Positions 44,661 to 47,641 of a stretch of 64,000 bases of DNA are shown piece after piece. Below the pieces are notes generated by a model. It did no database searches. It was not told where the DNA came from and saw only the letters and a program-made list of their open reading frames with translations. Each line of letters starts with the position of its first letter. The first letter of the stretch is position 1. The DNA is from Candidatus Tenderia sp. (GTDB lineage Bacteria; Pseudomonadota; Gammaproteobacteria; Tenderiales; Tenderiaceae). The position numbers were made by a program, and so were the translations under genes. Location: positions 19,138-83,137 of the forward strand of contig JANOSY010000031.1 in NCBI GenBank assembly GCA_031416075.1. The letters run 5' to 3'.

Positions 44661-45586
44661 CGCCCGCCCTCCAGCCGCACGCGCGGATCGAGCCAGCCGT
44701 AGACCAGATCGGTCAATGTATTGACCACCACATAGGCGAGACTGATCAACAAGACACACGCCTGCACCACCGGATAGTCGCGGCGCTGGATTGATTCAAT
44801 CGTCAATGAACCAAGCCCCGGCCAGGAGAACACAACCTCAGTAATCACCGCACCACCCAGCAGCACACCCAGCTGCAAGCCGAGCAGCGTGATCACCGGC
44901 AGCAGCGCATTGCGCAGCGCGTGACGCCAGATTACCAACCGCTCACTCAACCCCTTGGCACGGGCGGTACGGATGTAATCCTCATTCAACGTCTCCAGCA
45001 CGGTGGCGCGCACCATGCGCGACAGGATCGACGACATCGCCGTGCCGAGGGTGATGGCAGGCAGAATCAACGAGATCAGGCCATCGCGACCGCTCACCGG
45101 AAACCACCCCAGCCACAACGAAAAGACCAGGATCAAAATCGGCCCCATCAGAAAATTGGGCACCGATATACCCACCAGCGACAGCCCCATCGCCCCCTGA
45201 TCCCAGGGTGTGTCCTTACGCACCGCCGCCAACACCCCCATCGGGAAGGCGATCAGCACCGCCACCAACAGCGATGCCAGCGCCAACTCCACCGTTGCCG
45301 GCATACGCTCCAGCAACATCTCGCTGATGGGGCGTTGTGAATAGAGTGAGTTGCCCAGATTGAGATGCAGCAGATTGTTGTAATAGTTACCCATCTGCGT
45401 CAGCAGTGGCTGATCCAGCCCAAGTGCACGGCGCAGCGCCTCGCGGTCGGCAGGCTGCGCCGACTCCCCGAGCATCACCTCCACCGGATCGCCGGGCACC
45501 ATATATAAGAATAGGAATACCAATGCCGAAACGCCCATCACAACGATGAGGGCGCTGGCAATACGGGAGAGGAGGAATTTCAACAT
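44657..45586 (-). CDS. Peptide/nickel-type ABC transporter permease (DppB/OppB-like)
   Basis: 309 aa, MLKFLLSRIASALIVVMGVSALVFL..., with DYIRTARAKGL typical of DppB. Confidence 0.85.
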   Translation of the reverse strand: MLKFLLSRIASALIVVMGVSALVFLFLYMVPGDPVEVMLGESAQPADREALRRALGLDQPLLTQMGNYYNNLLHLNLGNSLYSQRPISEMLLERMPATVELALASLLVAVLIAFPMGVLAAVRKDTPWDQGAMGLSLVGISVPNFLMGPILILVFSLWLGWFPVSGRDGLISLILPAITLGTAMSSILSRMVRATVLETLNEDYIRTARAKGLSERLVIWRHALRNALLPVITLLGLQLGVLLGGAVITEVVFSWPGLGSLTIESIQRRDYPVVQACVLLISLAYVVVNTLTDLVYGWLDPRVRLEGGR

Positions 45587-45592
45587 TAATCT

Positions 45593-46156
45593 CTACTGTT
45601 CCGTCAACTTCTGGGCGATCTTATCCAAGTAGATACGAGGGTGATTTTTTAACCGAAAAATGGGGATACTACCAGGATTTAAAGTGGGCTTTGGTAACTC
45701 GGGTCGCGATGTCTCACCTTTTCGCTCCTGCTTACGAGGTTTGAAGCTGATAACACCACAAAATTCTGGCTCGATTGCACAATGGCCATTAAGACTCAGC
45801 AGTTTTACCAGCCATTGCATAAAAGCATGGCTTCTTAAAATTTGTTTTTCAGCACCGTTTTCACCTCCCGATTTCATTTCAATCATGATTATAATAGGTT
45901 TGCTATTGATATCCGCCACAACAATAGCATCACATACACTGTGCATTCCCTTAAGCGGGGTATCGTTACGCATGAACGGAAAAGCATTCGGTCCCAACTG
46001 ATCTAACGAAAATACCAGAGATTTTCCTCCCTGTATCTCAATCAAGGTATGTGTAGCACCTTTACCAGACTCTCTCAGTTGCCAGCGCCCGTCTGACCGA
46101 GGAAGTTTCCAATTATTGGTGATTAGATTATCAAAGCATGCCACAAAGTTGCTCAC
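45593..46156 (-). CDS. Hypothetical 187-aa protein with a PD-(D/E)xK-like motif (candidate nuclease effector)
   Basis: GTG start overlaps the ATPase stop (GTGA). CDAIVVAD...IIMIEMKSG gives D76/D82...E93-x-K95. The C-terminal tail is basic and Pro-rich. Low GC. Confidence 0.5.
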   Translation of the reverse strand: MSNFVACFDNLITNNWKLPRSDGRWQLRESGKGATHTLIEIQGGKSLVFSLDQLGPNAFPFMRNDTPLKGMHSVCDAIVVADINSKPIIIMIEMKSGGENGAEKQILRSHAFMQWLVKLLSLNGHCAIEPEFCGVISFKPRKQERKGETSRPELPKPTLNPGSIPIFRLKNHPRIYLDKIAQKLTEQ

Positions 46157-47574
46157 TGAGAACTCTCCTCAGAATCAGATTCTCCGCGATATGAATAATA
46201 AATTTCATCACTGGTCTCATTAAGGTCATGGATCACCTTGTCGAATGTTTCAGCCTGGATGCCCTCTTCTTTAGTTATTTTCATGGAAGATATTTTCCGA
46301 TCATCAAAAAGATAAGCTGCCACTTTATCTGGCTGGAGCACCTCAGTTTCTTGATAATCGAAGCGTTTCATCAACTTGTCTCTGTTCCTATTTGGTTGTG
46401 ACAACATAATCAATGAATTAATTTCTCTGACCAAATAATCACTGTGCGTACTCACCACTACACGTAAACCACTGTTTACTAACTTGGCGAGTAATCTTGC
46501 CAGCTTGCGCTGATTTCCTGGGTGGAGATTAAGTTCCGGCTCATCAATCATAAGCACATCACCTGACTTAGCCTGATGCTCTAGATAAAACCACAAACCA
46601 AACAAACTTTTAACGGTGGAGGAAGACAGATGCAAGTCCAATCTTTGAGGATCGCCACCTTTCAGTTTTTTTGGGGTAAAATAAATATTTCCGTCAGCAT
46701 CGACCTCGTATTTTCCGCAGACAACTTTTTTGACCTCTTCAGCCAAAGCATGAAATTGACCACCTTTTCTTTTTCTTGTATCAGGGATCTCATTCAGCCA
46801 ATCAATATAGTGAGCAATAGGCTCTGCATATCGAGAACCCCATACATCACGAATAAGTGCACTTATCTCAAACTCTTTGTCTTTTTTGGTGGCATGATGT
46901 AGCAAAGCAGTGCGTCTATTAGCCAATTCTTTATAAAAAAGATGCAACCCATTCCTCTCAGCAGGCATCAAAAATACGCTTCGACGCGAAGTCACACCAA
47001 TCAAATGACTGACAACTGCATCACATAATATAAATTCAATATCAGGGAATCTTTGGGCACGGAGTGTTATTTGAACAGTTCTATCATTTGGCTGCTTTAC
47101 TAATCTCAATACCTCGTTTTTTTCCAAACCAAGAACCAAACTAAAGTCCATTTTCCGTTCGATAGCTGACGAGACAAGATGTTCCTCTTCAATTAGCCAG
47201 TCAAAATGGCTGTGAGAAAAAAGAGTTTTCGGAGCATTAAATATCCTTGGGAGACGATGTTTTGTCGCATTATGTATAGATTCAAGTATTTTCTTCGAAT
47301 ATTGTTTCAGCCAAGCCTCCATGTCCCACGACACTTGCCCCTCCTTCATTAAATCCTCAATGAGTGATTCGGTCTCTGGCAGATGCCCAAGAGGAGTCGA
47401 TGAAAGGAAGCCATACAGAGCATACATAACCCATGTTTTGCCAGTATTATTCGGGCCACAAACAATCGTCAAAGGCTTGAAATCGATATTTTGCCCACTC
47501 TCAAGGCATCCAAGACGTGAAGCGCTAAATTTCCAGCTTTGAAGATTAAATATTGCTTGTTCATCTGTACTCAT
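46153..47574 (-). CDS. AAA_15/AAA_21-type ABC ATPase (defence-system-like)
   Basis: ATG 47574 behind a GGAGAA SD. Walker A CGPNNTGKT, signature-like LSSSTVKS, Walker B VLMIDEPELNLHP, H-loop VVSTHS. About 40% GC against about 60% in the flanks. Confidence 0.75.
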   Translation of the reverse strand: MSTDEQAIFNLQSWKFSASRLGCLESGQNIDFKPLTIVCGPNNTGKTWVMYALYGFLSSTPLGHLPETESLIEDLMKEGQVSWDMEAWLKQYSKKILESIHNATKHRLPRIFNAPKTLFSHSHFDWLIEEEHLVSSAIERKMDFSLVLGLEKNEVLRLVKQPNDRTVQITLRAQRFPDIEFILCDAVVSHLIGVTSRRSVFLMPAERNGLHLFYKELANRRTALLHHATKKDKEFEISALIRDVWGSRYAEPIAHYIDWLNEIPDTRKRKGGQFHALAEEVKKVVCGKYEVDADGNIYFTPKKLKGGDPQRLDLHLSSSTVKSLFGLWFYLEHQAKSGDVLMIDEPELNLHPGNQRKLARLLAKLVNSGLRVVVSTHSDYLVREINSLIMLSQPNRNRDKLMKRFDYQETEVLQPDKVAAYLFDDRKISSMKITKEEGIQAETFDKVIHDLNETSDEIYYSYRGESDSEESSQ

Positions 47575-47641
47575 AACAAGTTCTCCAATCAATAATTTTT
47601 AATTCTATGCCATAACATACAATTCAATTCATATGAATTAA

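Follow-up and report, generated by a model that had tools for sequence, protein, structure and literature searches.

PD-T4-4 of Escherichia coli ECOR58 and WonAB of the Vibrio cholerae WASA-1 prophage are two described defence systems in which an ATPase is encoded together with a small protein of predicted nuclease fold. A selection for phage resistance led to the isolation of PD-T4-4, which protects E. coli (Vassallo et al. 2022, PMC9519451) and has been grouped with WonAB as similar in organisation (Adams et al. 2025, PMC12137116). Its small subunit, PD-T4-4_B, was listed or modelled as a PD-(D/E)xK protein (PMC10952713; PMC12137116, Extended Data Fig. 4), and a variant of this fold was predicted for PD-T4-4_B and for the related WonB (PMC10952713, PMC12137116, bioRxiv 10.1101/2025.07.10.664194). 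According to a citation in PMC12137116, operons of an ‘OLD-ABC ATPase + novel REase’ were reported by Krishnan et al. 2020. Here we describe a gene pair of this kind in a 64,000-nt stretch of the Candidatus Tenderia sp. contig JANOSY010000031.1 (hereafter the window). The pair consists of a gene for an ATPase (A, 46153..47592) and a gene for a 187-aa partner protein (B, 45593..46156), both on the minus strand.

The experimental data on the relatives are most detailed for WonAB. Defence was lost in the WonB K71A mutant and in ATPase mutants of WonA, K71A being also non-toxic. The toxicity of WonB depended on an active WonA ATPase, and under these circumstances genomic DNA stayed intact and translation stopped (PMC12137116). 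For the E. coli system (EcPD-T4-4), the proteins were found to form a higher-order complex (bioRxiv 10.1101/2025.07.10.664194).

With a probability of about 0.8, we consider B to be the ATPase-coupled small subunit of a PD-T4-4-type system, which has a PD-(D/E)xK core and, upon licensing by the ATPase, would hydrolyse phosphodiester bonds and so arrest infection, the two genes having reached this genome by horizontal transfer as a low-GC (guanine plus cytosine) cassette.

Affiliation with PD-T4-4

Judged by their sequences, B and A are a PD-T4-4-type pair: the ATPase profile, the profile of the small subunit and the adjacent, co-oriented arrangement in an operon were all found. In PADLOC, protein A matched PD-T4-4_A (PDLC04033) with an E-value of 3.8e-124 over residues 21-467, and B matched PD-T4-4_B (PDLC04037) with an E-value of 3.7e-10, its residues 3-152 aligning with positions 4-159 of the 190 in the profile. 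Both proteins also matched the models of PDC-M47, A with an E-value of 5.9e-93 (PDC-M47A) and B weakly, with 1.5e-3 (PDC-M47B).

The B gene is an open reading frame (ORF) of 187 codons with a GTG start and a TAG stop; GAGGAGAG is located directly 5' of the start codon. The translated protein has a computed mass of approximately 21 kDa and an isoelectric point of 9.4. An initial annotation, made from the letters of the window and a list of its ORFs, had placed a 187-aa product here and gave no strand; the ORF exists on the minus strand, and the residue numbering used there matches the minus-strand protein exactly. The segment it quoted, HSVCDAIVVADINSKPIIIMIEMKSGGENGAEKQ, comprises residues 72-105, with D76, D82, E93, M94, K95 and Q105 all numbered correctly. 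The plus-strand reading of the same interval was ruled out, having stops throughout.

A word-indexed search with B retrieved nine close homologues, and a second one with a profile built from these nine retrieved 42. The exhaustive search with the profile of the nine closest relatives yielded, at a cut-off of E <= 1e-3, 566 cluster representatives, and almost all of them were 170-210 aa long. Conservation was analysed in an alignment of 129 full-length representatives out of these 566, with 18-84% identity to B of the window. As many as 126 of the 129 matched PD-T4-4_B, the best with an E-value of 4.7e-86, and 30 matched PDC-M47B. A search with the 129-sequence profile returned 31 proteins, with uninformative names and no E. 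coli or Vibrio members among them. Homologues of B are ‘hypothetical protein’ wherever public sources name them, and most are nameless; no match to B was found in plasmid and phage collections by tblastn. We conclude that B of the window represents a divergent branch of the PD-T4-4 family, a system that, together with the prediction of its fold, is already in the literature.

The partner ATPase and the A-B operon

The A gene encodes an ABC/OLD-type ATPase, of 479 aa if translated from the TTG at 47592 given in the ORF list. A more probable start codon is the ATG at 47574, with a GGAG located 8 nt before it, and the product would then be of 473 aa. Protein A matched the Pfam families AAA_15 (E 1.1e-24) and AAA_21 (E 6.4e-18), and its motifs are intact: Walker A (GPNNTGKT, residues 46-53), PAER (210-213), Walker B (VLMIDEP, 346-352) and H-loop (STHS, 381-384). 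Its C-terminal half additionally matched the PADLOC models of AriA, PtuA, GajA, Old and HEC.

The TGA stop codon of A and the GTG start of B overlap by 4 nt (GTGA, 46153-46156) on the same strand, and we therefore consider the two genes to be translationally coupled. The association is conserved: an ATPase of the AAA_15/AAA_21 type, of 390-480 aa, was located directly upstream on the same strand in all 13 examined loci of B homologues, including members at 22-28% identity.

A two-gene, translationally coupled and horizontally acquired cassette could in principle be a plain toxin-antitoxin addiction module that stabilises itself, with B as the toxin and A as the sequestering antitoxin, all the more so as overproduction of the related WonB is toxic (PMC12137116). 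We regard this as very unlikely, since simple sequestration is ruled out for WonAB by the need of its toxicity for WonA and for ATP hydrolysis by WonA (PMC12137116), and since PD-T4-4 emerged from a selection for phage resistance (PMC9519451). The position of the large ATPase as the first gene and its affiliation with ABC ATPases are, moreover, typical of sensors of the OLD/Septu/PARIS type.

Predicted fold of B

The core of the PD-(D/E)xK fold follows the element order alpha-beta-beta-beta-alpha-beta. An AlphaFold2 model of B, calculated from the 42-sequence alignment, had a predicted local distance difference test (pLDDT) value of 90.7 and a predicted template modelling (pTM) score of 0.89. 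It consists of a helix (residues 4-11), strands 24-28, 38-42, 45-49, 77-83 and 86-95, a long helix (102-122), strands 131-138, 165-170 and 174-176 and a terminal helix (177-186). D76 stands immediately ahead of core strand 2 (77-83), E93 and K95 end core strand 3 (86-95), and Q105 lies in helix 102-122, which is followed by the fourth core strand (131-138). The family member P0189, at 28% identity to B, was modelled with an identical topology (pLDDT 89.2).

B is accordingly named here as a protein with a predicted, divergent restriction-endonuclease-like PD-(D/E)xK core, the element order of which fits in both models. The initial annotation had proposed this fold from one short motif, with the acidic residues at the ends of two successive hydrophobic strands and a glutamine in the following helix. 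The model reproduced this context, with the helix-strand-strand-strand-helix-strand order in place and D76, E93-x-K95 and Q105 situated as in PD-(D/E)xK proteins.

Structural neighbours of B were weak but dominated by nucleases of the restriction fold, which, as judged by entry names, accounted for 36 or more of the 50 best Foldseek matches in PDB; among the weak matches were DdmD, Nt.BspD6I, PaqCI, FokI, BamHI, MunI, BsoBI, SwaI, Bse634I, Mus81, FAN1, Bax1, a splicing endonuclease and the hantavirus cap-snatching endonuclease. The weak matches in BFVD included VRR-NUC, UL24, Mrr and ERCC4, and the second model gave a similar pattern. The aligned cores comprised about 60-80 residues at roughly 3.3-4.5 Å.

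Conserved residues

The bare pattern D-x(10-30)-[DE]-x-K occurred in 53% of the shuffles of B, and hence means nothing on its own. Where a run of three hydrophobic residues was demanded beside each acidic residue, the pattern occurred in 0.18% of the shuffles and in none of the 69 ORFs of the window that encode 150 aa or more.

Across the 129 family representatives, D76 (codon at 45929..45931) and Q105 (45842..45844) were invariant. K95 was retained in 127, and position 93 was acidic in 128 (110 E, 18 D); the codons of the E93-M94-K95 triad occupy 45872..45880. D76, which borders the predicted strand 77-83 on its N-terminal side, would be the ‘PD’ aspartate, and E93-M94-K95 the (D/E)-x-K element, at the C-terminal end of the predicted strand 86-95. 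The initial annotation had left the choice of the motif aspartate between D76 and D82. The former is the one preserved throughout; the latter is variable across the 129 sequences (E, S, Q and others) and was discarded. Conservation of D76, E/D93 and K95 across the family was thus borne out.

Further polar residues, beyond those weighed earlier, proved to be near-invariant as well. Besides Q105, these are D52 (46001..46003), which belongs to an F-S-L-D motif that is conserved and closely follows strand 45-49 and which is acidic in 127 of 129 sequences (116 D, 11 E), and E29 (46070..46072), a conserved N-terminal acidic residue (107 E and 8 D of 129). D52 is likely an extra acidic residue of the active site. 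Together with R141 and K146, discussed below, D76, E/D93, K95, Q105, D52 and E29 make up a family-wide list of probable active-site residues of PD-T4-4_B that may guide mutagenesis.

A single sentence in one preprint of 2026 calls the PD-T4-4 effector an HNH nuclease (bioRxiv 10.64898/2026.07.10.737580), while three other papers assign it to PD-(D/E)xK. For B of the window, the HNH designation is almost certainly wrong: neither HNH nor any other Pfam family matched B up to an E-value of 1, and no conserved H-N-H or Cys4 pattern is present, with H125 occurring in 51 of the 129 representatives and C133 not being conserved. In the predicted structures, too, the D...ExK hairpin is part of a mixed sheet, and the topology is not that of beta-beta-alpha-Me.

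The C-terminal region

The initial annotation had also described a basic, proline-rich tail, quoting KPRKQERKGETSRPELPKPTLNPGSIPIFRLKNHPR, i.e. residues 139-174. Its composition is as reported, since residues 139-175 contain 10 K/R and 7 P among 37, but a free tail it is not, being mostly ordered in the AlphaFold2 model. The lowest confidence was confined to block 141-150 (mean pLDDT 60), and residues 165-186 form a beta-hairpin (165-170 and 174-176) and the terminal helix (177-186) with pLDDT > 90. The proline-rich stretch (approximately 150-163) varies in both sequence and length among homologues.

The conserved part of this region consists of R141 (kept in 93 of 129 sequences), K146 (a basic position in 124, with 107 K and 17 R) and T149 (86 T and 22 S of 129). 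They belong to a basic loop, R141-T149 (R-K-Q-E-R-K-G-E-T, codons at 45710..45736, minus strand), that directly follows core strand 131-138. This loop may plausibly bind a substrate phosphate or contact the ATPase.

Divergence of the two subunits

B was less conserved than A in all ten locus comparisons (L008, L002, L004 and L086-L092), with identities of, for example, 84% for B vs 97% for A, or 35% vs 54%. Between the window and locus L008, from another Ca. Tenderia sp. metagenome-assembled genome (MAG), the synonymous substitution rates (dS) of the two genes were equal (0.17), and the ratio of non-synonymous to synonymous rates (dN/dS) was 0.48 for B vs 0.09 for A. For a pair in which A served as the sensor and B simply as the effector, faster divergence of B would be unusual.

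A ratio and a tendency of this kind are more usual for recognition surfaces, and for no PD-T4-4_B has enzymatic activity been shown so far. Both facts would suit a catalytically inert B that serves as an adaptor or sensor on a restriction-like scaffold, with any toxic or defensive activity coming from the ATPase or a host factor. We nevertheless hold this to be improbable. The invariance of D76 and Q105 and the near-invariance of K95, E/D93 and D/E52, down to 18% identity, are hard to explain without catalysis, and mutation of the equivalent lysine of WonB (K71A) abolished defence and toxicity alike (PMC12137116).

Several results weigh against the assignment of B as a PD-(D/E)xK effector of the PD-T4-4 type. 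Its direct PADLOC score is modest (37.9 bits), and neither a Pfam (checked up to E 1) nor an NCBIfam family was found for it; across the 129 members, only four sub-threshold matches to the relevant Pfam clan appeared (HSDR_N_2, PDDEXK_15, Herpes_UL24 and PDDEXK_9). With the two models as queries, Foldseek gave no match at E <= 1e-3 in PDB or BFVD, the best E-values being 0.058 and 0.0062, respectively, and the template modelling (TM) scores <= 0.3. The sequence profile search of PDB was without a relevant match, returning only a chance one to RRP44 at E 0.8. The grouping of D76, E93 and K95 in space is deduced from the topology, and the dN/dS of 0.48 could reflect relaxed constraint on B. Finally, the purified EcPD-T4-4 complex cut 0 of 11 DNA substrates (bioRxiv 10.1101/2025.07.10.664194). 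Membership in PD-T4-4_B holds by transitive homology despite the modest direct score, because 126 of the 129 family representatives match the profile. The PD-(D/E)xK reading is backed by the predicted topology, by residue conservation, by this membership and by independent published predictions.

Putative mechanism and substrate

By analogy with WonAB and E. coli PD-T4-4, protein A would dimerise around ATP, with B held on the C-terminal extension of A. Licensing of B would require that A senses a cue derived from the phage and binds or hydrolyses ATP; B would then hydrolyse phosphodiester bonds by means of a metal ion bound to D76 and E93, with K95 acting as the general-base or transition-state lysine. 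Infection would be arrested, probably in an abortive manner.

As for the substrate, we see RNA and some form of DNA as roughly even candidates. The published data on the relatives, as far as they may be transferred to B, speak against bulk double-stranded DNA and in favour of either RNA (tRNA or rRNA, with arrest of translation) or a special DNA structure.

B could instead be a DNase that cuts the invading phage DNA and confers direct immunity, the ATPase being a motor for scanning or loading on DNA and not an abortive switch. Restriction and nicking enzymes that act on DNA, along with DdmD, are the nearest, albeit weak, neighbours in structure, members of the family are repeatedly found with an N6_N4 methylase on one side and a ResIII enzyme on the other (L004 and L091), and 7 of the 11 systems with putative DNase domains in the collection of Vassallo et al. 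gave direct immunity (PMC9519451). Against these stand the inactivity of the EcPD-T4-4 complex on the 11 DNA substrates mentioned above and the action of WonB, which kills without degradation of genomic DNA and blocks translation (PMC12137116); the cassette in the window, in addition, contains neither a methylase nor any other gene for self-protection. On balance, we find a phage-DNA-cutting B possible but doubtful.

A more specific version of the ATPase-licensed reading can be put forward tentatively, at odds that we would place well short of even. B may be a restriction-fold cutter of tRNA or rRNA, and not a DNase, that is licensed by the ATPase and arrests translation, and, given the outcome of the ten locus comparisons, it could also be the faster-evolving and specificity-bearing subunit of the pair. 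In the same scenario, the minimal A-B cassette may spread without a recombinase of its own into spacers of a few nucleotides in housekeeping operons (between the YkuD-like and permease genes here, between clpC and radA elsewhere).

The cassette and its insertion site

The A-B pair resides in an inserted cassette of 2,058 bp (45584..47641, minus strand), delimited by composition and by comparison of empty and filled sites, which separates the stop codon of a YkuD-like gene from the start of an ABC permease gene. Its GC content is 0.405, vs 0.605 and 0.555 in the flanks, and is the lowest of any stretch in the window.

The insertion site was compared across GTDB genomes, which were scanned with the permease gene from its flank. 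In the closest genomes, L006 and L007, in which the permease is 98% identical, the site is empty: the YkuD-like gene ends with ...GAGTAA and is followed by GCTACT and then by the GTG of the permease (about 3663-3673 in L006 and about 5991-6001 in L007). The site is filled in the window and in L008, where 2,058 bp with A and B stand in place of the 6-nt GCTACT spacer. The start codon of the permease was rebuilt upon insertion and reads ATG-TTG in the window and TTG in L008. The order of substrate-binding protein, YkuD-like gene and permease, with no insert, is also maintained in dozens of relatives at a greater distance. From composition and site comparison, we consider that A and B were horizontally acquired, and recently so, as a precisely delimited low-GC cassette inside an ABC-transporter operon. 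For this genome, the locus accordingly represents a recent and exactly bounded insertion of an immune cassette.

No integrase, terminal direct or inverted repeat or target-site duplication was found at the ends of the cassette. A perfect 14-nt palindrome, AATTCATATGAATT (47626..47639), is situated at the upstream edge, in the AT-rich leader of the ATPase gene and 2 bases past the YkuD-like stop codon; an operator or a site or scar of recombination would be possible roles. A scan for promoters and terminators gave counts not above those in shuffled sequences and no match in the ATPase leader.

Neighbourhoods of homologous pairs

The surroundings of B homologues resemble defence loci. Two copies of the A-B pair occur in Diaphorobacter sp. 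HDW4A (L002 and L003, CP049910.1), each beside the integrase of a P2/P4-like prophage, and these elements carry Phage_GPA, Ogr_Delta and pRha genes. In L093, the pair lies beside a SIR2 gene, and in L090 it lies near TIR and transposase genes.

In L004 (3266-11701) and L091 (4827-12558), genes for an N6_N4 methylase and for a ResIII helicase-nuclease enclose the pair, and a ResIII gene was also present in L089 (847-5585). By gene content, this arrangement is that of a defence system nested in a restriction-modification-like system. In a Sulfuricellaceae MAG (L086, 3778-5528), a pair consisting of an AAA_15/AAA_21 gene and a DUF4276 gene is encoded immediately upstream of A-B, so that two ABC-ATPase systems may form a small defence island there. 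On a Firmicutes-like contig (L092, 4617-6576), a distant A-B pair was found between clpC, of the ctsR-mcsA-mcsB-clpC genes, and radA/disA, with no recombinase nearby, a further case of insertion into a conserved row of housekeeping genes.

Comparison with known defence systems

The analysis assigns a class of function to a protein that is labelled ‘hypothetical’ or is nameless in the public sources searched and that has no Pfam family. The current understanding of PD-T4-4/WonAB-type systems is left unchanged by this member, the appeal of which lies mainly in the question of the substrate, in the fast-evolving B subunit and in the recombinase-free insertion into an operon spacer.

The closest likeness is to PD-T4-4 itself (PMC9519451; PADLOC PDLC04032-04037). 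In both, the ATPase gene comes first and a gene for a B protein of approximately 190 aa second, both window proteins match the PADLOC models of the system, and B is predicted to be of the PD-(D/E)xK type in each. The two differ in host, since the pair described here comes from an uncultured Candidatus Tenderia-like gammaproteobacterium, is known there from its genes alone and is likened to PD-T4-4 via profiles, and in location, the cassette being inside a transporter operon and not in an integrative and conjugative element (ICE). PDC-M47, a candidate system of PADLOC, was matched by both A and B with lower scores than PD-T4-4 and is probably its sister branch.

WonAB (PMC12137116) shares with the window pair the combination of an OLD-type ABC ATPase and a small partner with a PD-(D/E)xK variant fold, and, by sequence pattern only, the arginine-bearing PAER motif of A (residues 210-213) is taken as the counterpart of the WonA R182 region. 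It provides the mechanistic template, i.e. the ATPase being required to license the nuclease. WonB, with approximately 16 kDa (about 140 aa, catalytic K71), is smaller than the 21-kDa B, and the two are likened by description.

Septu (PtuA with the HNH protein PtuB), PARIS (AriA with the Toprim protein AriB), Gabija GajA and HEC-01/02 likewise couple an ATPase sensor to a nuclease effector. Their effectors are of the HNH, Toprim or NERD type, whereas B of the window is predicted to have a restriction-like fold.

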